A stretch of DNA of 64,000 bases from IMG/VR virus record IMGVR_UViG_3300042691_041259, positions 138,506 through 202,505 of that record. One strand, 5' to 3'. A program made the translations under genes and the position numbers. Shown here in pieces: positions 10,084 to 56,628 of the stretch (positions within the stretch are counted from its first letter, which is position 1; each line of letters begins with the position of its first letter). Origin of the DNA: a virus. Its lineage: Duplodnaviria > Caudoviricetes. Under the pieces are notes generated by a model, which worked only from the letters and a program-made list of their open reading frames with translations, did no database searches and was not told where the DNA came from.

Positions 10084-10099
10084 TGATTGACTTTTAATG

Positions 10100-12982: not shown

Positions 12983-12992
12983 TATATTTATC
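12983..12992 (-). promoter_or_regulatory. Late-promoter-like motif GATAAATATA
   Basis: Immediately upstream of the amidoligase. Recurs upstream of structural genes and resembles the T4 late TATAAATA box. Confidence 0.55.
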
Positions 12993-13006
12993 TCAGTATG
13001 AGTAAC

Positions 13007-14221
13007 TTATTCTTCGTTAGGGATTGTCAAAAAGATTTTATCATTGTGTACGCGTTCAACGGACACCATTACGTGGTCACCTACCGCGTAATTCTTCTTT
13101 TTGATTTTTATTTCTTTCTTGGAAATTAAGCCTACAATATCTTTCTGCAGCTTTACCAAAGTACCAAACGGCTGAATTGAAACAACTTCGCCACCTGTGA
13201 TCACTCCTAAATGTTTTTCTTTGAACTCTTCAAGCTCTTTCATACGAATGCTTGGATCTTCATCGGTAAGAATAATTTTCTTATCTGGCGTAATTTCTTT
13301 AATCCAGAATTGAACGGTATTTCCTGCCGAAAATACGCCACTCTTAAAGTCTTCCCGCATTTCAGGAGTCATTTTACTTGTATGTATAAGACCTGTGAAG
13401 ATCTCATTAAATTCTACAAATACACCAAACTTGGCAGTACCAGTGACTGTTCCTGTATATTTTTCTTCCAGGCTAAGGCTTTCAATTTTTGAAGGCAATA
13501 CGTGTGAAAGATATTTTTTGTGGCTGAATACAAATGTTCCAGCGTCTCTGAGGTAATCTTCCACCATTACGTATATTTCTTTGCCCAGCATTGAATCAAA
13601 GTCTCTTACAATATTAGCCGCTGCCAAAGAACCAGGTAAGAAACCTTCTATACCGGCAACGTTAACCAGGAATCCACCACCATTTCTGCTGATGATTTTT
13701 GCGGTGTACGCGCTGGTAGGCTTTTCAATTTGTTGGAAGAACTCAGAACGAATGCTTTGAGAATGTCCTTTGCTTAGAGAAGCTATTGTATAAGGCTTTA
13801 TGGTTTCAATTACCACTTTTTTGCCTTCAGCTCCAATAAATCCTGAAAAAGCGCCCTCGGTGTTTTTCATCCAGTCTACAAAAGACTCTTGATTCATACC
13901 AACAGTCTTAAAGTATGGCTTTTCTTTTTCCAATTGAATCACAGCGTCAATCATACCTGAAAGGGTAACTACCATTTCAGTGTCATTGATACTAACCACG
14001 GAAGTGATTGCGTGATATTCCCCAACTTTTGGTTCTTTTACGCCGCCAGCTGTGGATTTTTCATAGCGGAGATACATTTCTTCTGCACCGCTGTCATGTC
14101 TCCAAATCTTTACTCCATATTTCTTTAGGAGAACGGGATTTGGGATTCTTCTTGCTTGACGGTCTTCTGCTTCAAAAGCCGCCCAGTCAAAGTCGAGTGT
14201 TGTGTTATTTTTGATTTGCAT
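13007..14221 (-). CDS. Ribosomal protein S1-like, multi-S1-domain RNA-binding protein
   Basis: Four S1/OB repeats, e.g. GGGFLVNVAGIEGFLPGS, GTVTGTAKFGVFVEF...GLIHTSKM, GEVVSIQPFGTLVKL...GLISKKEI. Confidence 0.85.
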   Translation of the reverse strand: MQIKNNTTLDFDWAAFEAEDRQARRIPNPVLLKKYGVKIWRHDSGAEEMYLRYEKSTAGGVKEPKVGEYHAITSVVSINDTEMVVTLSGMIDAVIQLEKEKPYFKTVGMNQESFVDWMKNTEGAFSGFIGAEGKKVVIETIKPYTIASLSKGHSQSIRSEFFQQIEKPTSAYTAKIISRNGGGFLVNVAGIEGFLPGSLAAANIVRDFDSMLGKEIYVMVEDYLRDAGTFVFSHKKYLSHVLPSKIESLSLEEKYTGTVTGTAKFGVFVEFNEIFTGLIHTSKMTPEMREDFKSGVFSAGNTVQFWIKEITPDKKIILTDEDPSIRMKELEEFKEKHLGVITGGEVVSIQPFGTLVKLQKDIVGLISKKEIKIKKKNYAVGDHVMVSVERVHNDKIFLTIPNEE

Positions 14222-14240
14222 ATTTATAGGTTTTCTATGT

Positions 14241-14249
14241 CTATATATC
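14241..14249 (-). promoter_or_regulatory. Late-promoter-like motif GATATATAG
   Basis: In the short gap upstream of the S1-like gene. Identical 9-mer at 27126, 27159(+), 35830, 59161(+) and 63594. Confidence 0.6.
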
Positions 14250-14251
14250 TT

Positions 14252-41185: not shown

Positions 41186-41863
41186 TTACCATTCAGGTCC
41201 TTTGTGATCGTCTACATAAGCAATGTTTCGTTTGCTCATGATTTCGTGTATTTCTTCAAAAGAGTATGGACGAAATTCTGGGTGTGTATCAACACCTACG
41301 TCCATAGTCTTTCCATTTGCATGCATTTTTTCGTGGGTTCCACTTGCCAATTGACGAAGTTCATCATACCGCTTTTTATCCAGCAATTCATTAACTATAT
41401 GGCCCGAGATTGATGGCTCTAGAGAACCGTGACTGTGTCCGTGCAACATCCAGGCTCCTTCGTGTGAGCGATTCCAAACCCGAAAGCCATAGTGACTCAT
41501 AACAATCTTCTGACCATTAAAGGTAGCCTCTCGATAAAAAGAACATTCAGTAAAGAGACTTTGAAGTTCTTCACGATTCTTTATGATCCACTCATCATGA
41601 TTTCCGTAAATGAGGTAGATGTTTTGACAATTGATTCTTGAGCGGAACTCGCGGTAGTACATAATGTCTCCAAAGGAGAAGTCTCCCATGTGAAAGAGCA
41701 CATCATTTACTCCTACCGTCTTATTGATGCCATCTACAATGGCAGTGTCCATGTCCTGCAAGAGTTCGTAATCTCTGCAGTTTTCTTTATTTTGCCAGGT
41801 TGAGCAGCCTCGGCAGATGTTTTTATGGTGATAATGTGTGTCACTTGTAAAATAAATGTTCAT
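41186..41863 (-). CDS. Calcineurin-like metallophosphoesterase
   Basis: SDTH, GDFS, GNHD and HGHSH motifs. Confidence 0.9.
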   Translation of the reverse strand: MNIYFTSDTHYHHKNICRGCSTWQNKENCRDYELLQDMDTAIVDGINKTVGVNDVLFHMGDFSFGDIMYYREFRSRINCQNIYLIYGNHDEWIIKNREELQSLFTECSFYREATFNGQKIVMSHYGFRVWNRSHEGAWMLHGHSHGSLEPSISGHIVNELLDKKRYDELRQLASGTHEKMHANGKTMDVGVDTHPEFRPYSFEEIHEIMSKRNIAYVDDHKGPEW

Positions 41864-42153: not shown

Positions 42154-42328
42154 TGTCCTTGAGCAATACGTAGGTTTGATAAGGAATTGATACTTTGGCC
42201 TGGTCAGCTCTCTCTTGGTGATAAGTCCAACGGCCTCGAACTGCTTGATTACAGTTTTGGCCATTGCTCTGGAAAAATTTCCACATCACTTCCAAGGCAT
42301 CAATGTCAATGTAGAGTTCGATTCTCAT
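42143..42328 (-). CDS. Small hypothetical protein
   Basis: ATGA coupling to the upstream gene. Pattern resembles the N-terminal 60 aa of 58705..59142. Confidence 0.55.
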   Translation of the reverse strand: MRIELYIDIDALEVMWKFFQSNGQNCNQAVRGRWTYHQERADQAKVSIPYQTYVLLKDNEG

Positions 42329-42783
42329 TCTGCGTCTTCGATAAATTGAGCGTATACTTGACTAGTGTCAGTCTGCAATTTATTGATTGTTTCATTTACC
42401 ATTGTCTCAAACTGGGTGCCTTCCCAAGTGTTTCCAGTCTCTAGAGATGAGCGACGAAATACCGGGAAGATCACGGCTTCATTTTTCATTGGAGAGATTT
42501 CCGTTACCTCAAAAACCGACAAAGCATAACCATGTTTATCTTGGAATGCTTTAGAAATGTAGTCGCCTACTGAAATTGGAACAAGCGCCTGCTTCTCAGA
42601 ATTCTTCTTCATAAAGAGGGCTTTCTTGTGGCTGCTATCACTGTTGTAAACAACAGTAGCTCTGCGTAGGTCAGAAAAGTCTGTTGAACTTTCCCATAAG
42701 CACGGAACACCTGTGCGGGTACGTGCAATCTTAATTGTTTTGGTGGAGACGCCTTCCGCAGAAGGCTTTTGGATGTTTTCCAT
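42325..42783 (-). CDS. Hypothetical protein
   Basis: 152 aa ORF in operon. Confidence 0.65.
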   Translation of the reverse strand: MENIQKPSAEGVSTKTIKIARTRTGVPCLWESSTDFSDLRRATVVYNSDSSHKKALFMKKNSEKQALVPISVGDYISKAFQDKHGYALSVFEVTEISPMKNEAVIFPVFRRSSLETGNTWEGTQFETMVNETINKLQTDTSQVYAQFIEDAE

Positions 42784-42795: not shown

Positions 42796-43698
42796 TTATT
42801 GAATTAAAAAAATTGTTTGTAATGCATTTTTGCATGCCTGCTGGGTTATTTCCCCGCTCTTAACTATTATATCCATGGTTTCTTTAAACTTCTGTGCATC
42901 CGGAGTATATTCCAAACCATCAGGGTGTATAATGAAAAGCGGTTCTTTCATATAGAAGAAGTGCGGCGGATTTTCTTCGTGATTTTCGGAAAGGATTTTC
43001 TCGGCAAGATCAAAATGACGTTCATAGTAGTGAATGTTATCTGCGCAATGATAGTACTTTCCAAGTTGTAGATCTGGATACGTTTTACGCAAATTATGCC
43101 ACATTGTTTGCATTACCACTGCAAAGAACGGAACATCATAAGTAAAGCCATAAAACAAATCGTTAGAGCGCATTTGAACTTTCATATTCAGCTCGCCATT
43201 TCGGATCCAGAAGTTGAGGTACACGGTACAGACAAAATCTTTATTGCCTTCATACTGAAAGTCGGGATGACTAATAAAGGAAATTGCCTGGCGACTGTTA
43301 ATGTCTTTTACCAAGGATTCATATGCCCAAATCATTTGGTTTCCAAAGAGGCGGCTGCCATAGTTGGAATTGACGGTACCATCAGAATTCTGTAAGCCTT
43401 TCCAAAAGTTGGAAAAGTTATCAATGTAGTCCGTGTGACGCTCGCATGTCATATACCAGGCAAGTTCGCCTGCAAAGTATTTCCAATTAAACTCGCGATT
43501 TTGAAAATCCACAAGAGGAAACGTTGGACTGATTGTAAGCGTTTCCAGAAAAAGCTCACGGACTTTTTGTCCTCGAGGAGCTGATTCCATTCCTTCGGTT
43601 TTACATTTATGGAGAGTTTCTGCGAAAACGTCAGAAGCCGATGAAACCCCGGATTTCTTGAAGTATTTCGTCAAAATCTCTGTATTGGTCTTGATCAT
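42796..43698 (-). CDS. Thymidylate-synthase-fold dCMP hydroxymethylase-like enzyme (T4 gp42-like)
   Basis: KDFVCT catalytic Cys and MRSNDLFYGFTYD, with Asp at the position where dUMP-specific ThyA has Asn; H-x-YERH. Confidence 0.8.
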   Translation of the reverse strand: MIKTNTEILTKYFKKSGVSSASDVFAETLHKCKTEGMESAPRGQKVRELFLETLTISPTFPLVDFQNREFNWKYFAGELAWYMTCERHTDYIDNFSNFWKGLQNSDGTVNSNYGSRLFGNQMIWAYESLVKDINSRQAISFISHPDFQYEGNKDFVCTVYLNFWIRNGELNMKVQMRSNDLFYGFTYDVPFFAVVMQTMWHNLRKTYPDLQLGKYYHCADNIHYYERHFDLAEKILSENHEENPPHFFYMKEPLFIIHPDGLEYTPDAQKFKETMDIIVKSGEITQQACKNALQTIFLIQ

Positions 43699-44188
43699 TT
43701 ACTTTAATTGTGATTTTGTTGATGATTTTACTATTGTCTACAGCACTTTGAAAGGCTTCAATTTCTTCAACTTTCTTTTCAACCTTGTCAGAATATGACA
43801 GCCCATCGTCTTTCTTTACAATAAACTCTGCATCCGCAGTTAAGTGTATGAGGTAGACTTCTCTATCTTTATCCAGCGAATAACTCCGTTCCAATTGAGG
43901 AACCCAAGAGTCGGGATTGCTGTCACGATAGATTTTACCGTACACCAGCTCACCTAAGTGAGCGCGGTTCCAAAACAATACGTGATCTGAAAAATTGGCT
44001 CGAAGAAATATGAAATGAGCAAATTCATTATGAAATGTACTGATTTGCCACTTGGTCTTTTCGTCATTGGTAGTTCCATGTGGAAAAGACCAGTGCCTAA
44101 TGCTGTAATTTCTTAAGCCTTCTGAAAGTTTTTGAATGTAGCTGTCTTTTCCACAGCGATCCATTCCTTCAAAAATGATTAACTTCAT
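43631..44188 (-). CDS. dNMP/thymidylate kinase-like protein
   Basis: IIFEGMDRCGKDS P-loop; NRAHLGELVYG-x-IYR. Confidence 0.8.
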   Translation of the reverse strand: MKLIIFEGMDRCGKDSYIQKLSEGLRNYSIRHWSFPHGTTNDEKTKWQISTFHNEFAHFIFLRANFSDHVLFWNRAHLGELVYGKIYRDSNPDSWVPQLERSYSLDKDREVYLIHLTADAEFIVKKDDGLSYSDKVEKKVEEIEAFQSAVDNSKIINKITIKVNDQDQYRDFDEILQEIRGFIGF

Positions 44189-44205
44189 TAGTTGTTATTT
44201 GTTGA

Positions 44206-44233
44206 TTATATTCAATCAGCTGAAAAAGGTTTT
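44206..44233 (-). promoter_or_regulatory. Bipartite promoter-like motif AAAC-N15-GAATATAA
   Basis: Upstream of the kinase/hydroxymethylase pair. Confidence 0.7.
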
Positions 44234-44910
44234 AACAAAAAGGTTGTCACAAAGGGAAAATGATCTGATAGATCTGAGTGAAAGACCTCTTGTCTTACTG
44301 GTTCAAGACGGCCTCTTCCCATGCAGTAATCAATCCTTCCCATGGGATGAGTCTTTCGTGTTCCAATATCCATGAATTCGCGCATAAGTATTTCCGCCTC
44401 AGAAGAGGTGTCAAACACATTGAGATCACCACCAATGATTGCGTTATCTGGAAGTTCCATTTCATTCAAAGAGTTCCAGGCAGTATCTACGTGTTTTGAT
44501 CCCGCGTGACCTTCATAAGGCATATGTATATTGAACACTGATATTAAATTGGTATCCACATCTACTAATGACTCTTGTACATAGCATTTTTCAGAAAAAA
44601 CATCAGACAGCATGTGGTGTCGAGTTTTGAAAATGGGATACCTTGCATAGGTGGCAAGTCCGTAGGAACCTGTCCATCCAAGAGAACACCTTTTAGTCCA
44701 GCTGCCAAACCATTCATGTCCTAGATGCTGCTTAAATTCTGTGTATTGATCGGCATAACCGCTTCTTTTAGCAAGACGATCAACCTCCTGCAGCAGTATT
44801 ACATCAGCATTAAATCTTGGAAGCTCCTTGATGAATGCTTGAATATCCACTCCGGCTTTGTCTGTTAGTCCATGGCGAATATTCCAGGACAGTACTCGTA
44901 TTTCAGTCAT
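44212..44910 (-). CDS. Endonuclease/exonuclease/phosphatase (EEP) family protein
   Basis: SWNI, LQEVD, GGDLN, IDY and SDHFP motifs. Confidence 0.9.
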   Translation of the reverse strand: MTEIRVLSWNIRHGLTDKAGVDIQAFIKELPRFNADVILLQEVDRLAKRSGYADQYTEFKQHLGHEWFGSWTKRCSLGWTGSYGLATYARYPIFKTRHHMLSDVFSEKCYVQESLVDVDTNLISVFNIHMPYEGHAGSKHVDTAWNSLNEMELPDNAIIGGDLNVFDTSSEAEILMREFMDIGTRKTHPMGRIDYCMGRGRLEPVRQEVFHSDLSDHFPFVTTFLLKPFSAD

Positions 44911-45718
44911 TCAGATATTGTGAGGCCACCCATGAAAAAGAACACCCTTCTGGGTTCTCTTTAATACGCTCTTCCGTCCAGTCCTCAATTTTTTTATGGT
45001 TGACAGATGTATCATAGAGATGTACACTGTAGGTGATTGGCTTGATTAGTTCCGGCAAAAACTTATTGTAGATCTTCTCGGACTCAGTATAGCGATACGG
45101 ATAGAATGCTTCCCATGGAACTATTTTATAGTGCCCTTGTAGGCTTTCCCGAGCTACAAGAGTGCTGTGCATTTTAACACTATGCTCATCCCAGAAAGTA
45201 TCCTTTCCTTTGCTGCGGAACCATGTATATTCTTGGTACCACTCCTGAAGGTACTTGGAATTTGGTGGGCTAATAAGAACTCCGTTTCCGTATTTCCAGT
45301 CTCGGGATCCTAGTTTTCCAACTACAAACTTTTCCTCAGCAAGGAGATCATCAAAAGACTTGATAGTAATAGTATCAAAATCCGAGTAGACTCCGCCTTG
45401 TTCATTAAGTATCTGGATCCGAAATACATCAGAGGCATGTGCTGGATGCACCAATGGGTTTCCAAAAACTTCTGTTGGCGGATCTACTAAGTGAACTTTT
45501 ACGTAGTCTGAGACTCGTTCCCAATACTTACCAGTAGGCTGTTCATTGGTGTAGAAGTTGATTTCGTAATCAGGATTGTGTTTATGAAATGACTTGGCAG
45601 CCAAGAATCTCATCAAATCCCATTCTGCGTTTCGTTTGCTTTTGTCATTGTAAAAGTAGATAAAATGCATCTTCTTATACAATGGGTTAGGTTCTTTTGT
45701 TTCAAAAAGCTTCATCAA
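44903..45718 (-). CDS. DXD glycosyltransferase (GT32/Gly_transf_sug-like)
   Basis: HASDVFRIQILNEQGGVYSDFD signature. Confidence 0.85.
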   Translation of the reverse strand: MMKLFETKEPNPLYKKMHFIYFYNDKSKRNAEWDLMRFLAAKSFHKHNPDYEINFYTNEQPTGKYWERVSDYVKVHLVDPPTEVFGNPLVHPAHASDVFRIQILNEQGGVYSDFDTITIKSFDDLLAEEKFVVGKLGSRDWKYGNGVLISPPNSKYLQEWYQEYTWFRSKGKDTFWDEHSVKMHSTLVARESLQGHYKIVPWEAFYPYRYTESEKIYNKFLPELIKPITYSVHLYDTSVNHKKIEDWTEERIKENPEGCSFSWVASQYLND

Positions 45719-46920
45719 AAGAGTATTTTAGACGTTTGTTTGATCGGAGTATCTATCCGCTGTGCAATGTTGTCCTGTTTGAAGTAATCAACACCGCTGT
45801 CCTGCAAATGTCCAAAAAGCCATTTTATCACTTGCCCAGTCCAATCAGTTGCGGTATTTACCGGAACGTTTTGCGAGATTTGCTGATACCCTTCATGCGC
45901 CAAATTAAAGTTGCCGTCTATTCCCATGAGCCACATAAGTTCTTGTACGTTCATCCATCGGTGTTCGGTTGGATGCGTTGACAATTGTAAAGTTCTGCCT
46001 ACAACCGCGGTAATATCATTTGCATTAATGTGCGGAGTGCTATCCCATACTCTTTTGCGAGTTGCACGTTCTAATAATGCCAAGTATTTCTTGGACTTTG
46101 CATCCTCCCTATTTGCAAGGTAATCCATCGCCTTAGTAATTCTTTCCTGTTCACGGAAAATGTAAATAAGAATAGAACGGTTTCCTTCCAAGGCAGCTTC
46201 ATGTGGAGTTTTCTTTTCTTCCTGCGTAAGCCACTGGTACAGCGGATCTTCGGTCAGTGGATCCTTCATAAAGTACTTGTCGGTATACGGTCCAGCTGGT
46301 GTTCTTTCAATGTATGTTTCCAGCGGTAGCGTAATTCGGTTGCACCACTCCAGGATCGGAGCAGATTCAGCCTTCCAAAAGAAATAAAAAGATCGTACCC
46401 TGTTTTGCGGAATCCCATGCAGCGCTGTGGAAGTCTTGATCATACTGAAAGAATACCCGTGCTTCTTTCCAATTTCATAAAGTTTGTCCGCAACTTTCTT
46501 TCCTAATGCCGTATAGAGTCCAGGCGCGTTTTCACCCCAGAGAACTTTTGGCTTTACATTCTCGAGAACATACTCGGAAGACTTATACATCCATTCGTTT
46601 TGGATTGCATCCGCTCCACGAGCCTTTTCGCTACCTTCCTTTGTTGATGAATTCAATGCAGATAACCCTGCGCATGGACACAGACTTACTACCATGTCTA
46701 CGCCTTCAATTTCCTCATTAAAGGGACGGTCCCAAGCAATTCCGCTGTCTTCTATCAGGCCGTAAGGAATTTCTGGAAAGTTTGCCCGACAGTGACTGTC
46801 ATTGCTTTGGAAAGCATCGTAAGAGAGTATATACTCTGGATCTTTACCGGTCGCCCGTTTGGCTCCCAGGACCATCCCTCCAATGAGAGGTACTATAGCT
46901 GCATATTTAAAAGTTTCCAT
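45715..46920 (-). CDS. DNA cytosine-C5 methyltransferase-like protein (paralogue 2)
   Basis: CPCAGLS (motif IV), GENAPGL (VI), PQNRVRSF (VIII); motif I degenerate (IVPLIGG). Confidence 0.75.
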   Translation of the reverse strand: METFKYAAIVPLIGGMVLGAKRATGKDPEYILSYDAFQSNDSHCRANFPEIPYGLIEDSGIAWDRPFNEEIEGVDMVVSLCPCAGLSALNSSTKEGSEKARGADAIQNEWMYKSSEYVLENVKPKVLWGENAPGLYTALGKKVADKLYEIGKKHGYSFSMIKTSTALHGIPQNRVRSFYFFWKAESAPILEWCNRITLPLETYIERTPAGPYTDKYFMKDPLTEDPLYQWLTQEEKKTPHEAALEGNRSILIYIFREQERITKAMDYLANREDAKSKKYLALLERATRKRVWDSTPHINANDITAVVGRTLQLSTHPTEHRWMNVQELMWLMGIDGNFNLAHEGYQQISQNVPVNTATDWTGQVIKWLFGHLQDSGVDYFKQDNIAQRIDTPIKQTSKILF

Positions 46921-46921
46921 A

Positions 46922-48163
46922 TCAGAATAGACAAGTTGATTTTTCTTTCACATCAGCTTTTGTAGCTGAGAGATTGCTTTGTCGAAAAAACTTCTGACCT
47001 GAGGACGGAAGTTCTCCTTTAATGTATTTTACTACTTCCAAAGTCCAGTCTCGAGCAGTAGCGGTGGGTACATTTTGTGCAATGTGGTTCCACTGGTTTT
47101 TATCCAGGAGTTCAAAGTCATGAGGTAATCCCATAAGGTGCATATACTCGCGAATTGTAATGAACCGCTTTTCTTCGGGATGCGATCCACAGATCATGTT
47201 TTTAGAGATCACTGCATTAAAATGGTCGTTTCCTAATCTTGGAGAAACATCCCAAAAGCCTTTTCCTTCGGCAAGTTTCTTTTTAATGTGGTGTAATGAT
47301 CGAGCATCCACAGATCCAGGCAAAACTTTATCTGTGTACTCAATACATTCGTCCAGCCAGCCGTTCTTTACAATATACCAGTTCATGGTACGGCTGTCCT
47401 CGTCGGCCATCATTTCTTTCCAGGAAACTCCTTTAACCTCTTCCACAAACTTAATGATTGGGAGACCTTCAAGTTTCCAGTTGTTAAAAGTTTCCATTAG
47501 GGAAGCATCCTTTGGAACTTCTGACAGGTATTCACCAAGTTTCTTATGTTCACGATTGTAAGTGTTAAGAACTGGTGCGTACTCACTGTCCCAGAAGAAG
47601 TAGAATGTCCGTGAGCGTTCTTGTGGAATGCCATGGCGGATTGTAGAAGTTTTCATCAAACTCATACTGTAACCATTTTCTTGTGCAATCTCAAAAAGCT
47701 TGTCCACCACACCTTTACCAACTTCTCCATAGAGCCCTGGAGCGTTTTCTCCAAAAAATACTCTGGGTTTAAGAGTTCCCAAAACAAATCGAGCAGAACG
47801 ATACATCCACTCATTCTGTGCAGCGTCGGCTCCTCGCGATTTGCTGGTACCACCCTTTGAGTAATTAAGCATTGAAAGACCTGCACACGGACAAGTGGTA
47901 CTTACAAAGTCCAATCGATCCTCGGTCACCACCGGCAGGCCGCCGTCCTCATCAAGATTGATGTACGGAACATCTGGCCAATATGCCCTTAGGTGTTTTT
48001 CATTTTCCTGGAACCCATTGTAAGTGTACAAGGCAATTGGCTTATTACCAGTTGCCATTGAGTTTCCAATAGTAAACCCGCCAATGAGTGGCACTATTGA
48101 AGCATAACGGACTTCTCGTCCATCAATTAGAGCTCCAGCGCTTTCGTTATCGTTTCCTTCCAT
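46922..48163 (-). CDS. DNA cytosine-C5 methyltransferase-like protein (paralogue 1)
   Basis: IVPLIGG, CPCAGLS, GENAPGL and PQERSRTF; clearly paralogous to the adjacent gene. Confidence 0.75.
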   Translation of the reverse strand: MEGNDNESAGALIDGREVRYASIVPLIGGFTIGNSMATGNKPIALYTYNGFQENEKHLRAYWPDVPYINLDEDGGLPVVTEDRLDFVSTTCPCAGLSMLNYSKGGTSKSRGADAAQNEWMYRSARFVLGTLKPRVFFGENAPGLYGEVGKGVVDKLFEIAQENGYSMSLMKTSTIRHGIPQERSRTFYFFWDSEYAPVLNTYNREHKKLGEYLSEVPKDASLMETFNNWKLEGLPIIKFVEEVKGVSWKEMMADEDSRTMNWYIVKNGWLDECIEYTDKVLPGSVDARSLHHIKKKLAEGKGFWDVSPRLGNDHFNAVISKNMICGSHPEEKRFITIREYMHLMGLPHDFELLDKNQWNHIAQNVPTATARDWTLEVVKYIKGELPSSGQKFFRQSNLSATKADVKEKSTCLF

Positions 48164-49608
48164 TCTTCTAAAAAGTTGTAGTAATTAAAGTGTTCTTTGA
48201 GCTCGTGCATCACTTGAGCTTTTTCTTCAGGATGCGAGTCGTAGTAAGCAATTCTTTCAAGGATTTCTTCGTGGTTATGTACCACAATTTTTTCCTGAAG
48301 CGATGCAGGAATACCCGTGCAGTCTGGATCGTACCGATAGTCAAGTAGAGGGAACACATCCAGAGCAAGGTAAAGAGCTGGCCGCCAGTTAATGATATTG
48401 TAGCGAGCAATGTTCTTGGCCACGAGCGAGTACTCGTACTGCGCAAGTGTTCGGTTGAGTTCTTGTGTGTCGATATATCCACGGTAGTTTGGGTGATTTG
48501 AAACCGAATCCCAGAGTTCTGCAATAGTTGAGTCCTCAGTAATTCTTTTTTGCAACCTACCAATGCTTTTGCCTTCTTTTTTTCTTTCTGAAATGTGTCC
48601 ATCAACTTTTGGTGGAACATAGAGATCAATGCCTTCGCCTTGAAGATTACGTAGATATGTATTCCAGACATCTTTGCGGGTATTTTTGCTCAAAAACACC
48701 GTTCCATAGAAGATGAACTTATTCCGCTTTGTCTTGTCAATTTCCCATGGCTTTTCGTATAAAAAGTGTTGCATTTCTGCTACCGGGAAGGCATCAAAAT
48801 CTCGGGTTCCGCGGAAGTCCTTTGCTAGCGCAAAGTTTTTGTGAGATGGAGACAATGTATCAAATACTCGGTAAAACGATCCAGGATCCACCACAAAATA
48901 GTATGACTTCTTGAAGTTGCCACTAGTTTTTCCTTCTTCAATATACCAGGCTCCCAAGTTATACAGGAGGTTCTTCATCCAATAGGTAAAGGTGAGAATC
49001 CCTACATGATAGTCGTATCGTTTGCTAATTTTCTTACAATTTTCCAGAATTACTTCACGGATTCGTGGATCATTGCCAATGTAATCGTGGAATTCATTGT
49101 CGCCATGGATGTTCTCGTGTTGTAGAATTTCTTTTGGCGTTTCGCGTTTTACCCAGTAATCTTTCAGTGGCAGAAAAGCCCAGCGTTCATCAAGCCACAT
49201 TACATACTGTGGAAAAACTTTAGGCAATTCTCTTGAAAAGAATTCCTGCACCACATCCCGGTTATGTTCCCAAGAAAGGTTATCTTCCTCGGTCATTTCC
49301 GCCGCGCGCTTGAACCGCTTTTCTTTAATCTCTTCAAAGTCGTTTTGATTGATTGAATAGATGTTGGAATAACCCATGTCCACCAGTCGAGATGGATCAT
49401 TGTCAACGCCAACCCATACCAGGTTAAATCGTGGAGCAAGTACTTCCTGAATCATGTTGCGGTACCATCCAAGTATATGGTCCTGTTCTTTACACAGGAT
49501 AAGCTTGGAAAACACCAGGATCATTGTCTCCTTTTGAGGATCCAAAGGTTTTACGTTATATGACCGAACAAGTCTGAGTGGCTTTTCGGGTGCGTCAAAT
49601 AATGCCAT
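48127..49608 (-). CDS. DNA beta-glucosyltransferase-like GT-B protein
   Basis: C-terminal half FIFYGT...R, LDYRYDP, NHEEILERI...EWKETITKALEL parallels the T4 BGT C-terminus (recalled alignment). Confidence 0.6.
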   Translation of the reverse strand: MALFDAPEKPLRLVRSYNVKPLDPQKETMILVFSKLILCKEQDHILGWYRNMIQEVLAPRFNLVWVGVDNDPSRLVDMGYSNIYSINQNDFEEIKEKRFKRAAEMTEEDNLSWEHNRDVVQEFFSRELPKVFPQYVMWLDERWAFLPLKDYWVKRETPKEILQHENIHGDNEFHDYIGNDPRIREVILENCKKISKRYDYHVGILTFTYWMKNLLYNLGAWYIEEGKTSGNFKKSYYFVVDPGSFYRVFDTLSPSHKNFALAKDFRGTRDFDAFPVAEMQHFLYEKPWEIDKTKRNKFIFYGTVFLSKNTRKDVWNTYLRNLQGEGIDLYVPPKVDGHISERKKEGKSIGRLQKRITEDSTIAELWDSVSNHPNYRGYIDTQELNRTLAQYEYSLVAKNIARYNIINWRPALYLALDVFPLLDYRYDPDCTGIPASLQEKIVVHNHEEILERIAYYDSHPEEKAQVMHELKEHFNYYNFLEEWKETITKALEL

Positions 49609-51032
49609 TAGAACAATTTTGTTGCGTTTACTGCTGGAGCTGCTGCCTTAGGAGCGTTCCACTTGACAAATACCTGCTTGGCGCCATCAAGGTAGCTCAG
49701 TTGTTTTCCCATGACTTCCTGGATTCCAAGAGCCGGGATTTTGCCTTCTGCTTCAAACTTTGAAACTTCTTCAGCGTACACCGGACCACAAAGGCTGGAC
49801 AGCAATTCGCGTTCGTCGGTATATTTATTGGTGTCCTTTCCCATTGAAAAAATGTGTTCCAAAGTCTCGGGAATTATGCGGTCAGCATTAAATTCCTGAT
49901 AGGCCACGTCAAAAGAGGTCTGTTGGTAGCGCTTCATCATTGGAATGTTGTGACTCATTTCCACAATTTTTGCAGCCACTTCTTGTACATCAGTTCCATC
50001 GGAAAGAATACAGAAGTCTGGAATATCTGAAAATAGAGTACCATCAGAGATTCGATTATGTTCTGCCCAGTGACGGTCAAACAGTGGAACTGCTCCAGTA
50101 CCAATGATTTCAATTTGTGTATATTCCATGCGGTCTCCATAATTTTGTGGCTGCTTGGGTAGTGAATAAAAAGCAGAACCAAACATATGTGTTGCAAAGT
50201 GATTCAATGCAAAGTCGCGTGTGCATGGTTCCCATGCTTTTACTGGGCCATTACCATATACGCGATTAGGAATTGTTTTATTTACTTTGGTGTAAGTAGT
50301 CCATTCGTGATCAATGATCTGGAATTTGGCGCCGACTGATGCTTCAATACCGTGAATTTCTGTAACAAAGGTTGGATCTATTTGATCCGCCCAGTAACCA
50401 ACCTCAACAGTACGGTCAATGTTTTTCAAAGTAGACCAACGGCCAACATAGGTGAGTCCGCGTTTGCGGCTTTCAATAGGATACTTTTCTTTGTAAGCCA
50501 AGAGTTCCTCAAAGTTCATCCACATTTTGAAGCGACACATTCTTTCGTTAGCCTTTTTTGATGGCATCATGGTAATTACTTGCTGAGCCATCCAGGTATC
50601 AGTACCAAAGTGATATACTAAATCAGCATCATTAAGCATTGGAACGAGATAGCAAATCTTGTCAACGTTGGCTTTAGAGATCTCATGTACAAACATTACC
50701 TTTAAAGCTTGTAGTGGCTTGAAAAGATTATGATAGAACTTTTTAATTGCCTCGTGCTCGTACTTATTGTTAGGGTACGAATTGAAAATTACCAGGTCAT
50801 ATTTTTCTAAGGCTTGCTTAATTTCATCAACGTTCTCGTGAGTAAAAGATCGGTACGTCAGTTTATGAGAGCCTCTTCGAGTATAAAACTTTTCGTCATA
50901 CGAAAAGGTATCCAGTTGGCAACCCACTTTTTTGGACCAGAGCTCCAGCTCTGCTCCTACGCGTGTAACTCCACAGCCTTCAATTCCCTGGCCATAAACC
51001 ACGGCAATTTTCTTTTCTTTCCAATTAGTCAT
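49608..51032 (-). CDS. DNA alpha-glucosyltransferase-like protein (T4 AGT-like)
   Basis: GQGIEGCGVTR, NSYP, GRWSTLK, MEYTQIEIIGTGAVPLF correspond to T4 AGT motifs GRGIEGCGVTK, NSVP, GRTTTWK, LEYTHLELGACGTIPVF. Confidence 0.8.
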   Translation of the reverse strand: MTNWKEKKIAVVYGQGIEGCGVTRVGAELELWSKKVGCQLDTFSYDEKFYTRRGSHKLTYRSFTHENVDEIKQALEKYDLVIFNSYPNNKYEHEAIKKFYHNLFKPLQALKVMFVHEISKANVDKICYLVPMLNDADLVYHFGTDTWMAQQVITMMPSKKANERMCRFKMWMNFEELLAYKEKYPIESRKRGLTYVGRWSTLKNIDRTVEVGYWADQIDPTFVTEIHGIEASVGAKFQIIDHEWTTYTKVNKTIPNRVYGNGPVKAWEPCTRDFALNHFATHMFGSAFYSLPKQPQNYGDRMEYTQIEIIGTGAVPLFDRHWAEHNRISDGTLFSDIPDFCILSDGTDVQEVAAKIVEMSHNIPMMKRYQQTSFDVAYQEFNADRIIPETLEHIFSMGKDTNKYTDERELLSSLCGPVYAEEVSKFEAEGKIPALGIQEVMGKQLSYLDGAKQVFVKWNAPKAAAPAVNATKLF

Positions 51033-51037
51033 TTTGA

Positions 51038-52639
51038 TTAGTTATTTTGTGATTCTGATAGTTCTTTAATGAGTTGTTTTCCGCGAACAAACATGGCCTT
51101 TTGGCGGTCCGGATCATCAGCATGAAATGGTATTGCTGTGATAAGCAGCATTACAGCAAGACGCTTAAGAAGATACACTTCGTAACCATGAGACTCAAGT
51201 TCGGCTTCAAGAAACTCAGAAAGCTTCTCGGTACCAGGAACCCAGTTAATTTCAATGGTATCATTTTTATATTCATTCTTTCCCCATGTGTAGCGTTTAG
51301 CCATGATCATGGCATATCCACAGTAAAAGTCTTGTAAGAGTTTTCCCAAGTCATACCGCAAATCGCCTTGCGTCCAGGTTTCTCCAAAGGATCCTCGTGG
51401 ATCCACAAATTTTAGGCTGCCACTGTATGGATCATAAATAATGTTACCTAAGTGAGAATCTCCATGCATAACATGAGACCATACCGGATGCTTACACATC
51501 ATTAATGCGGTGTCTAGTAAAAAGTCTTCGTGCCAACGTGTTATCGGAACGTGCTGGCGAATATCAGCAATCCGTGCTTTGGTCTTTACAAAGTAATGTT
51601 CAAAGCAGTATTTTGAAGAGTCCTCAGGATTGATTGTTTTTTCTGGATAGTATGAAGCAAATACCTGATGATGTATTTCCAAGATCTTTCGAATGATCTC
51701 GTGCCAAACATCGGTGCGAAGGTTATCATAAACCAGGACTTCATTCAGAGCAGTTCCAGGCTCGAGAGACATTTTGAGAATTCCATAATCCGACTCCAGT
51801 ATTCTTGGACAGAAGAGAGCTTGCTCTTCATCCAGGCCTTTGAACCAACGCTTTTCCGCCTCAATCTTTTCTTCCTTCTTGGGATCATCTGACCACTTGG
51901 TGACAGTACCATAGAACGTGTCAACCTGTATGTGATTGAAAGACCTGGCGGATTTAGAAAGCAGACGAGCTTTTGATTGGTAATATGTATTAAGTTCTCC
52001 GCAGTCGTACCACTTATTTGTTTCAACAAGTTCCATTGCGCCTTCAGTCTTTACATAGGCCTCGAGTAGCGCGGCTATTTGATACTCGCCTTTGTGAGTG
52101 GGCCTTTTCATGCCTTTAGCCAAAGAACGATTGAATGCTTTGCGATTAACAAAATTATAGACGCCAATCAGCGCCTTGTTAGTTGGTACCTCAGTATCGG
52201 GCTTATCATACAGGTTTCCATCGCTGTCTACAAGACACCATCGATGTGGATCTGCCACATTATGAACCGCCAGGAAGCTGCGTTGATATGGAAACTCTTC
52301 TAAACAGATAGTGTCACCAAGCCAGATAGTGATGGCGTTTTCCGCATGCTCCAATGCATTGAATCCAACTTCAATTGCGTGCAGAGGGCCAAGCTTTTCG
52401 GCTTGCACCACGCATTTAATATCAAGTTTAGGATAAACACGTGCTACAAATTCAGCAATATCACCAATCTCGTTTTCCACTATGATTACTTCATTAACAT
52501 CAGATTCTTTGAATATGTGTTCAATTACATAGGAGATAAGCGGTCGGCCATTGACAGGTATCATGGCTTTACTTACGCCTTTTGATAAAGGCTTCATACG
52601 AGTGGCCAAACCGGCCGCTGGAATAATTACGCTTCTCAT
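51038..52639 (-). CDS. Sugar-phosphate nucleotidyltransferase fused to an aminoglycoside/choline-kinase-like domain
   Basis: IPAAGLATRMKPL...KAMIPV N-terminus; C-terminal HGDSHLGN and VDPRG kinase motifs. Confidence 0.85.
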   Translation of the reverse strand: MRSVIIPAAGLATRMKPLSKGVSKAMIPVNGRPLISYVIEHIFKESDVNEVIIVENEIGDIAEFVARVYPKLDIKCVVQAEKLGPLHAIEVGFNALEHAENAITIWLGDTICLEEFPYQRSFLAVHNVADPHRWCLVDSDGNLYDKPDTEVPTNKALIGVYNFVNRKAFNRSLAKGMKRPTHKGEYQIAALLEAYVKTEGAMELVETNKWYDCGELNTYYQSKARLLSKSARSFNHIQVDTFYGTVTKWSDDPKKEEKIEAEKRWFKGLDEEQALFCPRILESDYGILKMSLEPGTALNEVLVYDNLRTDVWHEIIRKILEIHHQVFASYYPEKTINPEDSSKYCFEHYFVKTKARIADIRQHVPITRWHEDFLLDTALMMCKHPVWSHVMHGDSHLGNIIYDPYSGSLKFVDPRGSFGETWTQGDLRYDLGKLLQDFYCGYAMIMAKRYTWGKNEYKNDTIEINWVPGTEKLSEFLEAELESHGYEVYLLKRLAVMLLITAIPFHADDPDRQKAMFVRGKQLIKELSESQNN

Positions 52640-53040
52640 GGGTTTATCAATCTTTTAAGAGTTACAGATTCATAGTCAACTGCATCGTTTCTTACAAAAT
52701 CTGATGGGGAAAGAGCACGGTCGTCAATGTAATAAACATTAGGACCCCATGGCTTTCCAATTTTTATATCATCATAAGGAACGTCGTGACGATGCAACCA
52801 GCTGAGAAGAACCGGCAAAACATTGAGACGGACTTGCTCCACATCACCGCTATAGGTTCGCATTCCGCGAGCCGTATGCAGGATGATTGTGTGACCTTCC
52901 TCTTTAAGTTTTCGGATCCGTTGAATCACTGGCCAAATCGGTCGAGCGTTTGCATAATCGTTACCGGATTTGCCATTCGGATACTTATCAGCCACGCAGA
53001 TAGTACCATCCACATCCATTACAAAAGTTGACTTTTCCAT
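52636..53040 (-). CDS. HAD-superfamily phosphatase (capsule-biosynthesis type)
   Basis: DVDGT, TAR, GKP and IDD motifs. Confidence 0.85.
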   Translation of the reverse strand: MEKSTFVMDVDGTICVADKYPNGKSGNDYANARPIWPVIQRIRKLKEEGHTIILHTARGMRTYSGDVEQVRLNVLPVLLSWLHRHDVPYDDIKIGKPWGPNVYYIDDRALSPSDFVRNDAVDYESVTLKRLINP

Positions 53041-53673: not shown

Positions 53674-54291
53674 TTAGAATAGTTTATTTTTCTTTGAGAG
53701 TTTATGTAACATTTCTCGCCCTTTCTTAATCTTATACCAGACGTCTCCTGGTTTACAGCCAATTTCCTCCGCAATCTCTTCATTGGAAGCCTCCTTAAAG
53801 TATCTCATAGAGATTGCTTTAGATATATCTTCAGGCAGCTGGGAAACAAGAAGTCTTACCAATCGCGATATTTGTTCACGGTCAATCTCTGCATTCATAT
53901 CTACTTCATCAGCGACTGCAAAGGCTTCAGCATCTCGGACATTTGTTGGACGATCATAAGAATCTGCTTCCAGCCGCTTCTTTTTTCTAGGAATACCGCT
54001 AACATAATTATGAAGACATGCAATCATCCAGGTAAAGAACTTGGATTTTTCCGGATCATACATTCTTATCTTTACAAATGTGTTTCCCAGGACTGTCATT
54101 ACAATATCTTCTAGGTCTTCCACCTGTGCTTGCGGAAGTCGACGTTTAGCAGCCGTGTATAGGATTGGCTTATACTTTCGAATGAGGATATTGTAGGCTT
54201 TAGTATCTCCTTCAATAGCAGATTTTACCAGTTCTTTGTCTTCTTCATGCGTGGTATACGCTACTGACTTATAGCCTTTTCGTGTCCTCAT
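53674..54291 (-). CDS. ECF (group 4) RNA polymerase sigma factor
   Basis: Region 2 (ELVKSAIEGDTKAYNILIRKY...EDLEDIV...YDPEKSKFFTWM) and region 4 HTH (LPEDISKAISMRYFKEASNEEIAEEIG...VWYKIKKGREML); no region 3. Confidence 0.9.
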   Translation of the reverse strand: MRTRKGYKSVAYTTHEEDKELVKSAIEGDTKAYNILIRKYKPILYTAAKRRLPQAQVEDLEDIVMTVLGNTFVKIRMYDPEKSKFFTWMIACLHNYVSGIPRKKKRLEADSYDRPTNVRDAEAFAVADEVDMNAEIDREQISRLVRLLVSQLPEDISKAISMRYFKEASNEEIAEEIGCKPGDVWYKIKKGREMLHKLSKKNKLF

Positions 54292-54297: not shown

Positions 54298-54323
54298 TTA
54301 TATTCTTGGAAGATTAGTAGTTT
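54298..54323 (-). promoter_or_regulatory. Bipartite promoter-like motif AAAC-N14-GAATATAA upstream of the sigma gene
   Basis: GAAAC-TACTAATCTTCCAA-GAATATAA, 6 nt before the sigma ATG. Confidence 0.65.
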
Positions 54324-55936
54324 CAGTTCTTTTGGTTTTCAATTGAATCCCATGCATCAATAATGGCTTTTGCAAATACCGGCTCGCGACCAGTCCACCC
54401 TGCAAGTACTGCGCCTCGGTAGAGGTTTTCCGGTAGAATTGAGTTATCATAGCCTGCCACTTGCACCGTGAACACATTCAGTTTTGGGTTCACCTTTTTG
54501 CGGTAGTCGTTAACGAGCTTGAGAACATCGATATGGGAACTACCCGGTGCGTGAACGTATTCAGCGTATTCTCTACGATCTCTGCCAAAAAGCTGCCCGT
54601 GTCCGGCCTGCATATCACTATAGATGAATACCGTATCATAGTGAATTCCCTTTTCCAACGCCTCTTTCCAGAAGAGCCAAATTCCATTTTCGGTAGAGCT
54701 GCCTTGTGAAGCTCCACGTCTAGATACTTCATTCAGCTGGCCCAGAAGACCGTCCCGCTTGGAAACTGGTTCAATTGACAGCTCGTCGCCAAATACTCCT
54801 ACATAGCCTTCATCAGCTTGTTTGGCAGTGATGAGCGATGAGAGATTCGCAATTTCCGCCACAGTAACGGATCCGTATTCGGAATTGAGTGTTCCCCATG
54901 CAGAACCGCTGTTGTCTGATAGGCAAGCCACTTTTCCAGCAAGTTTTGGCATATTAGAAACCGCAATGTCCATGCATTCCTCCAAACCGTCCATAAGGAT
55001 TCGTTTATGATTTACGCTTTCCCCTTTTGCGATTGCCCGGTACGCTGAATAGTAACGGAAAGGAAATTGCTTTCCAGTCAGAACTCCGCCTTTCAGTTGA
55101 TCAATTACCTTTTGAGCTATTTTCAAATCTTGGATTTCAGTAAAGATTCCACGAAGATTTCGCAAAAGCGCCATGTGAGGAACTTTGATAGTTTCCACAA
55201 TCTCAGTCCAGGTCTTGCCTGCTGAACGAAGAGTTTCCCATGTCTGTTCAGTAGACTCTACCTGGATTTTGCCAGTTTTCATAAGTTCATTGATATCATC
55301 GTTGCTAGCATGCGAGATACGTACCAGGTCAATTAATGATTTTCCTTTATACTTATTCAGCTGGTAGCGGCTATACTCCTCCAGACGTTCTGCCCATGTT
55401 CTTTTCAAAAGAGAAGGCAAACCGTTCTTGGAACCTTTAAGAAACATATAATAGTCCAACTGATTGGTAAGGTCATCAGGTCTTCCTGCAATTGATTTTC
55501 CAATAGTTTTCATATAGCCAGGATTCTGTTCATTAAACTTGGCACGTCCTATATGAACAGCAGCTCTTACATAAATCACTGCTGGATTAAGACGCATGTT
55601 GTAGACCTCACGAAGTTCTTTTGCCAGATCCAGCGTTCCTTTAAAGTCATATTCCAGGGATGCTTCAATTGATTTGGTAAATATCTCTACCACATTAGTA
55701 GAATCAAACAAACCTGCAAAAATGTTGTAAGAATGTTTTGATAAAGTTTTAGGAGATTCCAAGCCATCACGGTAATACTGCGGTTCTCCAAAAATTGAGG
55801 ATGCTGCAACAATTCGTAAAGTATCCAGCGGGTTGAGTGCGTATGATGTACCACCCATAAAGTTTTCCACAGAGGTTTTCGCAAAGCGATTCATCGTGGC
55901 AGTTTCTTTGTTGCTGTATTTAGTCAGTCTACTCAT
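54323..55936 (-). CDS. rsr: TROVE-domain RNA-binding protein (Ro60/Rsr homologue) with C-terminal vWA
   Basis: RPDDL, RYQLNKY...SLIDLVRISH, TWE, PHMALLRNL, QFPFRYYSAY, and vWA DNSGS plus IYSDMQ. Confidence 0.9.
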   Translation of the reverse strand: MSRLTKYSNKETATMNRFAKTSVENFMGGTSYALNPLDTLRIVAASSIFGEPQYYRDGLESPKTLSKHSYNIFAGLFDSTNVVEIFTKSIEASLEYDFKGTLDLAKELREVYNMRLNPAVIYVRAAVHIGRAKFNEQNPGYMKTIGKSIAGRPDDLTNQLDYYMFLKGSKNGLPSLLKRTWAERLEEYSRYQLNKYKGKSLIDLVRISHASNDDINELMKTGKIQVESTEQTWETLRSAGKTWTEIVETIKVPHMALLRNLRGIFTEIQDLKIAQKVIDQLKGGVLTGKQFPFRYYSAYRAIAKGESVNHKRILMDGLEECMDIAVSNMPKLAGKVACLSDNSGSAWGTLNSEYGSVTVAEIANLSSLITAKQADEGYVGVFGDELSIEPVSKRDGLLGQLNEVSRRGASQGSSTENGIWLFWKEALEKGIHYDTVFIYSDMQAGHGQLFGRDRREYAEYVHAPGSSHIDVLKLVNDYRKKVNPKLNVFTVQVAGYDNSILPENLYRGAVLAGWTGREPVFAKAIIDAWDSIENQKN

Positions 55937-56628
55937 AGCTTTTGATATTTGAAATAATTGATTTTGAATTTTGATGTTGGATGATTCTCCACTTCAGTGC
56001 CAATTTGGACACTGTTATTGAGTATCACATTCATTTGCTGATTCTTAAAGTACGAAAGAACATTTTTATCGGTAACAGATCGAACGTGTCTTTCATTGTA
56101 AAAGATATCAATTCGAGTCTCTTGCCATTCACATGAATACTTTAAGAACTCTTTGGCCGGATCTTTTATGCCAAACCAGTGATTTTTAGCTCTTATTTGA
56201 TGGTGATCAGCAGATCTTCCATAATGAACATTGGTAGCAACGTTCCATGGATGATAAAACTTATACCACTTATTGAAGTAGTTTCCGCGGCTATTTGAGT
56301 ATGCTTCAAATATGTCAATTTCCGGTGGCCAGGACTCCCAGCCCCACATCCAAAAAGCAGGCCACAACTTCGGCCCAGTCGGTAAGAGCGCTTCAATCTC
56401 AAAATAGCCATACCCAAACTTTTCCGTACAAGACACCAACCCAATTCCAATTGGACGTGTTTTGCCATCTTCAAATTGCTTAGGGTTTTTTTGAGTCTTA
56501 AGTATTAAGGTTTCTCCACATAATTCAACCGCTGTCGGATCATGATATGTAAGAGAACTGTCTGGATGGTGGTCACCCCATCGTTCTTGTTTAAGCCATT
56601 CATAGCCCGACCAGATTATTTTTTCCAT
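55933..56628 (-). CDS. Glycoside hydrolase family 16 (laminarinase-like)
   Basis: WPAFW...PEIDIFE catalytic ExDxxE motif; YGYFEIEALLP. Confidence 0.9.
   Translation of the reverse strand: MEKIIWSGYEWLKQERWGDHHPDSSLTYHDPTAVELCGETLILKTQKNPKQFEDGKTRPIGIGLVSCTEKFGYGYFEIEALLPTGPKLWPAFWMWGWESWPPEIDIFEAYSNSRGNYFNKWYKFYHPWNVATNVHYGRSADHHQIRAKNHWFGIKDPAKEFLKYSCEWQETRIDIFYNERHVRSVTDKNVLSYFKNQQMNVILNNSVQIGTEVENHPTSKFKINYFKYQKL

Follow-up and report, generated by a model that had tools for sequence, protein, structure and literature searches.

A predicted jumbo-phage pathway for multiply glycosylated 5-hydroxymethylcytosine that includes a divergent methyltransferase-fold family

The window considered here is a 64,000-nucleotide stretch of DNA from an uncultivated giant phage (Duplodnaviria; Caudoviricetes) that forms the final 64 kb of IMG/VR virus record IMGVR_UViG_3300042691_041259 (positions 138,506 to 202,505), a 202.5-kb contig with an estimated completeness of about 66%. 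Between positions 42796 and 53040 the window harbors ten minus-strand open reading frames (ORFs) that abut or overlap one another. This cluster appears to encode a jumbo-phage pathway of cytosine hypermodification, operating both before and after replication, which would provide the phage with DNA containing multiply glycosylated 5-hydroxymethylcytosine (hmC). We put the probability of this reading, which is drawn from sequence comparison, at about 0.7; that the DNA contains glycosylated hmC of some kind is a safer expectation. In outline, the locus would work in the manner of the T4 glucosyl-hmC pathway, to which have been added more glycosyltransferases and the sugar-activation module known from arabinosyl-5-hydroxycytosine phages. 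Two pathways that until now have been described apart, namely gp42-type hydroxymethylation and AfhE/AfhF sugar activation, are united in it. Phage DNA hypermodifications determine whether a given restriction, CRISPR or glycosylase defence is effective against a phage, and the systems that make them are the source of widely used enzymes, such as the T4 beta-glucosyltransferase (BGT) employed in hmC mapping.

The cluster ORFs were assigned to domains with Pfam, PHROGs and NCBIfam profiles. All ten ORFs lie at the coordinates first given for them in an earlier note on this DNA, and every domain named there was recovered, with matches that are at family level and statistically well past chance. 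The view taken in that note, of a cytosine hypermodification locus rather than a thymidylate synthase with stray glycosyltransferases, is upheld. Intact catalytic motifs are found in the HAD phosphatase (DVDGT), the kinase domain of the nucleotidyltransferase/kinase fusion (HGDSHLGN), the DXD glycosyltransferase (DFD) and the P-loop kinase. A megablast search of the 10-kb region against GenBank phages gave no match.

T4 gp42 converts dCMP into 5-hydroxymethyl-dCMP, and this dCMP hydroxymethylase is the closest solved relative of the thymidylate synthase (TS)-fold protein of the cluster (PDB search, 1.1e-15). The window protein was aligned with the contig's own ThyA, a T4-like gp42, RB69 gp48 and DLP3 gp80. 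Its catalytic cysteine, within DFVCT, aligns with T4 Cys148, and three residues ahead of it, at the position of ThyA L143, stands an aspartate (KDFVCT). Aspartate is kept at the position of ThyA D169 (MRSND), where RB69 and DLP3 have asparagine (MRSQN), and is found once more at the position of ThyA N177 (GFTYD, compared with GFRND in T4 and GLPFN in ThyA). The N177D exchange confers specificity for dCMP, an acidic residue at L143, connected with water access, accompanies a non-methyl C5 product in hmC and 5-hydroxycytosine (5hoC) synthases alike, and D169N is present in every 5-hydroxy-dCMP synthase tested (Lee et al., PMC13326640). Because the asparagine at D169 is seen in RB69 and DLP3 and not in the window enzyme, the signature is assigned as that of a 5-hydroxymethyl-dCMP synthase, and the base is predicted to be hmC, not 5hoC. 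The first step of the pathway would be the conversion of dCMP into 5-hydroxymethyl-dCMP, a product suggested by these residues. The aspartate at N177, which indicates dCMP, and the adjacent methyltransferase-like genes would also suit a dCMP methylase of the XP12 type, which would generate 5-methylcytosine and leave the methyltransferase-like enzymes to complete the methylation. However, the aspartate at L143 correlates with hydroxymethyl, not methyl, products, and enzymes that resemble the T4 alpha-glucosyltransferase (AGT) and BGT need a hydroxyl acceptor, which makes such a methylase very improbable.

A genuine ThyA is encoded elsewhere on the contig, outside the window (C1:9045-10139; 327 bits), with homologs that bear the Leu/Asp/Asn signature, and the Asp-type TS is therefore not the thymidylate synthase of the phage. 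A dCMP deaminase is also present on the contig, outside the window and far from the cluster (C1:27831-28154), and together with ThyA it indicates that the normal route to dTMP is kept beside the Asp-type enzyme. Among GenBank phages, the closest relative of the TS-like protein (38% identity) is found in Acinetobacter phage MD-2021a, where a NodU-type carbamoyltransferase is encoded three genes away from it; this arrangement has been linked to 5-carbamoyloxymethylcytosine (MetaGPA study).

The P-loop kinase is predicted to phosphorylate the modified dCMP. This role fits the overlap between the 3' end of its gene and the beginning of the gene for the TS-like protein, and also the pairing of the two genes in all the relatives (loci L009, L011 and L013). 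The kinase is weakly homologous to DLP3 gp78 (pairwise E 3e-6). In the second step of the pathway it would act on 5-hydroxymethyl-dCMP, which would pass into the dNTP pool and thence into phage DNA. A function as a DNA hmC kinase, comparable to the 5-hydroxymethyluracil (5-hmU) DNA kinases, was considered and set aside as less likely, as the kinase gene overlaps the TS-like gene and is its constant companion.

Private sugar activation had been proposed for this locus, and the HAD phosphatase and the fusion protein are indeed homologous to the UDP-arabinofuranose module of RB69 and DLP3. The phosphatase is of the AfhF type, with 31-34% identity to RB69 gp51 (ORF051c) and DLP3 gp81 (E 1.5e-11 to 3e-11). 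Both domains of the fusion give local matches (24-34% identity), in the same domain order, to RB69 gp52:53 and DLP3 gp82 (AfhE), and orthologs of the fusion in relatives are 63-65% identical. AfhF and AfhE, as they are named in phage HY126, take arabinose-5-phosphate via the 1,5-bisphosphate and the 1-phosphate to UDP-arabinofuranose (PMC13326640). That kinase, phosphatase and nucleotidyltransferase occur side by side implies a starting sugar that already bears a phosphate, and at a non-anomeric position. By analogy with the AfhE/AfhF route in RB69-type phages, the third step would see the APH-type kinase, the HAD phosphatase and the nucleotidyltransferase convert a host sugar phosphate into a bisphosphate, a 1-phosphate and finally a nucleoside diphosphate (NDP)-sugar, whichever sugar this may be. 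At least one sugar of the modified base probably comes from this module; that the sugar is arabinofuranose is doubtful. A novel reading would place a pentose on hmC; the resulting arabinosyl- or ribosyl-hmC has yet to be documented as a base.

The glycosyltransferases are of several types, as the earlier note had it, and comprise an AGT homolog, a protein with the BGT fold, a DXD GT-A enzyme and the GT4 enzyme at 38.8 kb (Table 1). The T4 AGT and BGT are both specific for hmC. The AGT-like protein matches T4 AGT over its full length (PDB 1Y6F, 3e-12; residues 8-384 against 5-391), reaches 23.1 bits with Pfam PF11440, slightly below the 25-bit cut-off, and is 40% and 39% identical to gp306 and gp313 of Bacillus phage G. 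For the 493-aa GT-B protein the label BGT-like stands at the level of fold and not as sequence membership. Its AlphaFold2 (AF2) model (mean confidence, pLDDT, 85.9) has T4 BGT as its top six PDB matches in Foldseek (best 9e-8, TM 0.61 by target), and among viral proteins the top match bears the name 'DNA beta-glucosyltransferase' (8e-11). The BGT family is absent from its Pfam, PHROG and NCBIfam matches, a PDB profile search gave no relevant match, and tblastn against phages gave none. This protein is the glycosyltransferase that is conserved in relatives, with homologs in L011 and L013. The DXD enzyme has an 80% identical ortholog in L009 and a 1e-53 match in L028/L029. In a separate viral clade, homologs of the GT4 enzyme (about 1e-120) are encoded no more than 10 kb from the methyltransferase-like gene, at a distance of about 2.3 kb in L033, and the enzyme probably belongs to the system as a further component. 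Judged from homology and fold, the fourth step would be the glycosylation of hmC in DNA by the AGT homolog and the BGT-fold enzyme, and the DXD enzyme, probably with the GT4 enzyme, would presumably then extend the glycan. The product is expected to differ from the glucosyl-hmC of T4, which agrees with the earlier note; its description of the glycan as branched is unsupported, branching not being readable from sequence.

Several observations weigh against this pathway. In a maximum-likelihood tree the window TS falls in a clade of 9 rows, apart from the 25-row clade that holds T4-like gp42, so the product call rests on signature residues and context rather than on orthology, and three residues cannot prove what a TS-fold enzyme makes. 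The similarity of the fusion to the RB69 and DLP3 enzymes is weak (21-34% identity). The RB69 and DLP3 clusters also encode an arabinose-5-phosphate isomerase, and no such SIS protein was found in the contig (about 66% complete), in the complete phage XG4, in an 84%-complete relative or in a complete 293-kb contig, in a search that detected the DLP3 control. The sugar may consequently not be arabinose; either arabinose-5-phosphate is supplied by the host, for example by host KdsD, or a different sugar phosphate is used. Contig searches for a dCTPase (MazG and RB69 gp56) were empty, with the contig about 66% complete and the gp56 search run without a positive control, and the replacement of cytosine may accordingly be partial. 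Finally, pathways for surface polysaccharides, too, typically contain members of the GT4, DXD and 'capsule phosphatase' families.

This last point leads to a different view of the glycosyltransferases and the NDP-sugar module, in which they act on virion proteins or host envelope glycans and the DNA contains at most plain hmC. The GT4 enzyme, the GT32-type DXD enzyme and the TIGR01689 'capsule biosynthesis phosphatase' would all be at home in a polysaccharide pathway, and PHROGs places the GT4 enzyme under host takeover and auxiliary genes. Yet one of the glycosyltransferases is homologous to the T4 DNA AGT over its full length, the T4 DNA BGT is the nearest fold match of another, and the glycosyltransferase genes are mixed with genes for base modification in a single block of one orientation, an arrangement that is conserved in relatives. 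A target other than DNA is hence quite improbable.

The tree also has a bearing on the nature of the base. As in RB69, DLP3 and RL38J1, the base could be 5hoC, made by a flavin-dependent 5-hydroxy-dCMP synthase and carrying its sugars in ether linkage to the C5 oxygen. Four module types (HAD, fusion, TMK-like kinase and TS-fold enzyme) are common to the window and the DLP3 and RB69 clusters, and the place of the window TS outside the T4 gp42 clade would be consistent with this base. Set against it is the aspartate at ThyA 169, which is asparagine in all the 5hoC synthases tested (PMC13326640). In addition, the RB69 and DLP3 enzymes form a separate long-branch clade that is distinct from the window clade. 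The window glycosyltransferases, moreover, resemble the hmC-specific T4 AGT and BGT and not the GT4-like arabinosyltransferases of DLP3. We regard 5hoC as improbable and retain hmC as the predicted base.

The part of the locus that least resembles known pathway types is the pair of C5-methyltransferase-fold paralogs, P0001 and P0002. The two are 39% identical and belong to a methyltransferase-like family with 1899 homologs in a large protein collection and 542 confirmed relatives in IMG/VR. The family is so far virus-only, and its nearest ESM Atlas clusters are 94-100% viral and assigned to PF00145. The AF2 model of P0001 (pLDDT 89.4) has the C5 DNA methyltransferase fold, with M.HaeIII as the best Foldseek match (1dct, 1.4e-12). 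In an alignment of 25 diverse members the invariant residues are P82 and C83 of motif IV (CPCAGLS), E130 and N131 of motif VI, and Q172, R174 and R176 of motif VIII (QxRxR); the asparagine of motif X is kept across the family, and P0002 contains PCAGLS, ENAPG and QERSR. The cofactor site is different. An invariant P-L-x-G-G takes the place of F-x-G-x-G, motif I for S-adenosylmethionine (SAM), the position after strand 2 (motif II) is variable and has no conserved acidic residue, and the Pfam PF00145 match begins past motif I. Even profile comparison yields no alignment of the N-terminal third with any solved methyltransferase or with E. coli Dcm, and hhalign to Dcm covers motifs IV-VIII only. 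A phmmer search of the PDB with the methyltransferase-like protein gave no match; weak matches, to M.HaeIII and M.HhaI, were obtained only with a family profile.

The earlier note had thought of a methylated glycan, and this idea finds no support, as the target of the C5 fold is the base and not the hydroxyl of a sugar, and the SAM-binding motifs are non-canonical. Methyl transfer onto hmC is impossible, C5 being already substituted. C5 methyltransferases are capable of substituent exchange by C6 attack in vitro. The paralogs might act on DNA cytosines that escaped replacement, by methylation or another C5 addition, or on hmC through attack at C6 and exchange of the substituent. The fifth step of the pathway would thus be directed at cytosines in DNA, by enzymes that keep the cysteine-based machinery for C6 attack together with a non-canonical cofactor site.

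What the paralogs do can be envisaged in more than one way. They may be ordinary SAM-dependent orphan C5 methyltransferases that protect unreplaced cytosine from restriction as a mop-up activity, chemically unlinked to glycosylation. The C5 fold, the invariant PC, ENx and QxRxR and the retained motif X asparagine are what such enzymes would show; residual cytosine is plausible given that no dCTPase was found; and P0001 and P0002 diverge most between motifs VIII and IX, the usual place of target recognition. Against such a role stand the altered SAM motif I, the missing motif II acid and the unalignable N-terminal third, and also the occurrence of this so far virus-only family inside sugar-nucleotide/glycosyltransferase clusters in three unrelated contexts. 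Ordinary SAM-dependent methylation is thus a real possibility that stays well short of even odds. We propose, tentatively and with a little less conviction, that the family represents a new DNA-level cytosine enzyme that works by covalent catalysis at C6, using another cofactor or none at all, and is not a SAM methyltransferase. Such an enzyme may add a C5 group to unreplaced cytosines, for example in post-replicative hydroxymethylation, or may exchange the substituent of hmC. Some other function, or inactivity, accounts for the remainder. Were the new-enzyme proposal true, the family would constitute an integral, so far unrecognised step in the hmC-glycosylation systems of many aquatic phages.

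A precedent for a changed cofactor is provided by CmoX, in which a phage C5-methyltransferase fold has been repurposed (PMC12783734). The CmoX/CmoA/CmoY system of Synechococcus phage S-B43, which makes 5-carboxymethylcytosine, shares with the window the use of this fold within a hypermodification pathway (PMC12783734), and the CmoX structure 8YF3 matches the family weakly (E 0.0021). The family differs from CmoX in having CPCAGLS rather than SPPC, in having an asparagine, at the position of HhaI Asn304, where CmoX has Arg350, and in lacking the phenylalanine and glutamate contacts to adenosine. An assignment of the family as CmoX was ruled out on the basis of CPCAGLS and QNVP in place of SPPC, the asparagine kept in place of the carboxyl-binding arginine, and a CmoA search of the contig that gave no match. 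After CmoX, the present family, with its conserved core, altered cofactor site and company of hmC synthases and DNA glycosylation genes, is a candidate for new cytosine chemistry. No published chemistry for it was found in the literature, and the MetaGPA paper does not mention it.

The gene order HAD, fusion, glycosyltransferases, methyltransferase-like, kinase and TS-like recurs in relatives at 41-77% identity. In L009, where the methyltransferase-like ortholog is 77% identical and the other genes 50-81%, the same genes are found in the same order. Two methyltransferase-like paralogs are present only in the window phage and its closest relative. The relatives at 41-45% keep Ro60, HAD, the fusion, the BGT-like glycosyltransferase, one methyltransferase-like gene, the kinase and the TS-like gene, with the sigma factor also kept in the 41% relative; their other glycosyltransferases have been swapped (GT25, GT2, other GT-B) and class I methyltransferases added. 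Where the window has the AGT-like, DXD and EEP genes, L011 (11215-11808 and 19470-20039) and L013 (18034-18633) have Methyltransf_24/Methyltransf_21 and GT25/GT2/HtrL genes. Sugar O-methylation may occur in these 41-45% relatives and is not evident in the window phage. The pattern is one of a conserved core and a fast-changing glycan, and a glycosyltransferase set that varies among close relatives is what would be expected from an arms race.

Family neighborhoods were surveyed in the best 80 IMG/VR loci, in which a TS-like gene was sought within 10 kb. Such a gene was found in 43 of the 80, and in the alignment 42 of these 43 have aspartate at both D169 and N177, the remaining one being a fragment. 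Many of the TS-like genes beside family members sit in the true T4 gp42 clade of the maximum-likelihood tree. Other neighbors include T4-like replication genes, an NAD-dependent sugar epimerase/dehydratase (35 loci) and GT-B enzymes (23 loci). One clade has no TS-like gene nearby, and there the family member lies among genes for a DegT aminotransferase, GT2, HAD, a nucleotidyltransferase, GT-B, a 4,6-dehydratase and GT4. The L033 locus (positions 3378-14732 of a 151.8-kb IMG/VR contig) is a putative amino-deoxy-sugar cluster that holds the methyltransferase-like gene of this clade, and clusters of this type suggest yet another DNA glycan. For L042, of the same clade, the parent record encodes a TS-like protein with three aspartates (D/D/D) elsewhere, together with a true ThyA. 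In gene arrangements of several unrelated kinds, the family is therefore found in the company of hmC synthesis and DNA glycosylation.

Comparison with characterized pathways shows both what is shared and what has been added. With the T4 glucosyl-hmC pathway (gp42, gp1, alpha- and beta-glucosyltransferases) the window has in common the TS signature residues, a dedicated nucleotide kinase, an AGT homolog and the BGT fold. It differs in that its TS belongs to a separate clade, its kinase is TMK/PPK2-like rather than gp1-like and no gp56 dCTPase was found on the contig, and it adds the NDP-sugar module, GT-A and GT4 enzymes, an endonuclease/exonuclease/phosphatase (EEP)-fold protein and the two C5-methyltransferase-fold proteins. 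With the arabinosyl-5-hydroxycytosine clusters of RB69, DLP3 and HY126 (PMC13326640) it shares the HAD phosphatase, the nucleotidyltransferase/kinase fusion, the TMK-like kinase and a TS-fold enzyme. In contrast to them it has aspartate rather than asparagine at D169, no isomerase that could be found and methyltransferase-like genes, and its glycosyltransferases are AGT/BGT-like, whereas those of DLP3-type clusters are GT4/BshA-like. The phage MT/TET (5mYOX)/GT clusters (PMC8256090; bioRxiv 10.1101/2023.12.21.572611) likewise place a C5-methyltransferase-fold gene beside DNA glycosyltransferases and give rise to diverse glycans. However, in these clusters hmC is made on DNA by methylation and then oxidation, whereas the window has a nucleotide-level synthase of the gp42 type. 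A search of the contig for TET/JBP (PF12851) gave no match, and the control genomes were silent too.

Three further phage types carry versions of the gene set. In Pseudoalteromonas phage vB_Psh_XG4 the TS-like gene (D/D/D) comes first and is followed in a row by HAD, the fusion, two GT-B genes and the methyltransferase-like gene, with no P-loop kinase. Bacillus phage G has a dispersed version, at 211-237 kb of NC_023719, with two AGT homologs, HAD, a glucose-1-phosphate thymidylyltransferase, the methyltransferase-like gp301, a TMK and the TS-like gp319, which has the Asp/Asp/Asp signature; judged from these genes, the DNA of phage G probably contains glycosyl-hmC, and no report of its DNA modification was found in the literature. 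In cyanophage S-TIM5 the methyltransferase-like gene is about 2.4 kb from an Asp-type TS (gp076, gp080). The 'thymidylate synthase' of S-TIM5 has aspartate at N177 and a cysteine at the L143 position. A paper on TIM5-like cyanophages lists 'DNA meth' and 'DNA alpha-GT' genes and gives no DNA chemistry. Published DNA chemistry was found neither for XG4, phage G and the TIM5-like cyanophages, whose glycosyltransferase sets differ from that of the window, nor for the window's cluster type.

Table 1. Genes of the modification cluster and associated genes, in window coordinates
Feature	Position	Strand	Matches and remarks
HAD phosphatase, small, 134 aa	52636-53040	-	phrog_1238 5e-23; TIGR01689 5.5e-34; DVDGT motif
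Sugar-1-phosphate nucleotidyltransferase + APH-type kinase fusion, 533 aa	51038-52639	-	NTP_transferase PF00483 3.9e-17; PF01636 4.9e-4
DNA alpha-glucosyltransferase (AGT) homolog, 474 aa	49608-51032	-	phrog_2888 8.4e-87; PDB 1Y6F 3e-12
GT-B protein with T4 BGT-like fold, 493 aa	48127-49608	-	Glyco_trans_1_2 PF13524 2e-6; Foldseek T4 BGT
C5 methyltransferase-fold paralog 2 (P0002), 413 aa	46922-48163	-	PF00145 1e-15
C5 methyltransferase-fold paralog 1 (P0001), 401 aa	45715-46920	-	PF00145 3.1e-17
DXD glycosyltransferase (GT-A, GT32-like), 271 aa	44903-45718	-	PF04488 1.3e-12; DFD at residues 113-115
EEP-fold protein, 232 aa	44212-44910	-	PF03372 1.5e-16
P-loop TMK/PPK2-like kinase, 185 aa	43631-44188	-	phrog_761 1.9e-10; PF03976 1.2e-5
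TS-fold dCMP hydroxymethylase-type enzyme, 300 aa	42796-43698	-	PF00303 3.1e-17; T4 dCMP hydroxymethylase 1.1e-15
152-aa protein	42325-42783	-	Immediately follows the TS-like gene in L009, L011 and L013, 47-77% identity
GT4 glycosyltransferase, 377 aa	38765-39898	-	PF00534 1.5e-18; phrog_3408 3e-125
ECF-like sigma factor	53674-54291	-	Sigma70_r4_2 7e-10
Ro60	54323-55936
Glycoside hydrolase family 16 domain protein	55933-56628	-
Calcineurin-like phosphoesterase	41186-41863	-	phrog_547 1.4e-46

Two proteins of Table 1 are less readily placed. The 152-aa protein has no Pfam or PHROG match; from its conserved position it is probably a member of the module, and it may be a pathway component not yet recognised, such as a pool-clearing enzyme. 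The EEP-fold protein would act either as a nuclease against unmodified DNA or as a phosphatase. Its gene follows the methyltransferase-like gene in L013 and comes one gene later, past the DXD gene, in L009.

Nearly all the long ORFs are on the minus strand. A scan for promoter and terminator consensus sequences gave 43 promoter-like sites against 37 expected and was uninformative. The calcineurin-like phosphoesterase gene is downstream of the cluster and is conserved in L009 and L011. Upstream, at about 630 bp and separated from the cluster by a 132-aa ORF, is the gene for the extracytoplasmic function (ECF)-like sigma factor, which is preceded by Ro60; the order Ro60, sigma factor and HAD is kept in L013, a 238-kb Lake-type relative. 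The glycoside hydrolase family 16 domain protein adjoins Ro60.

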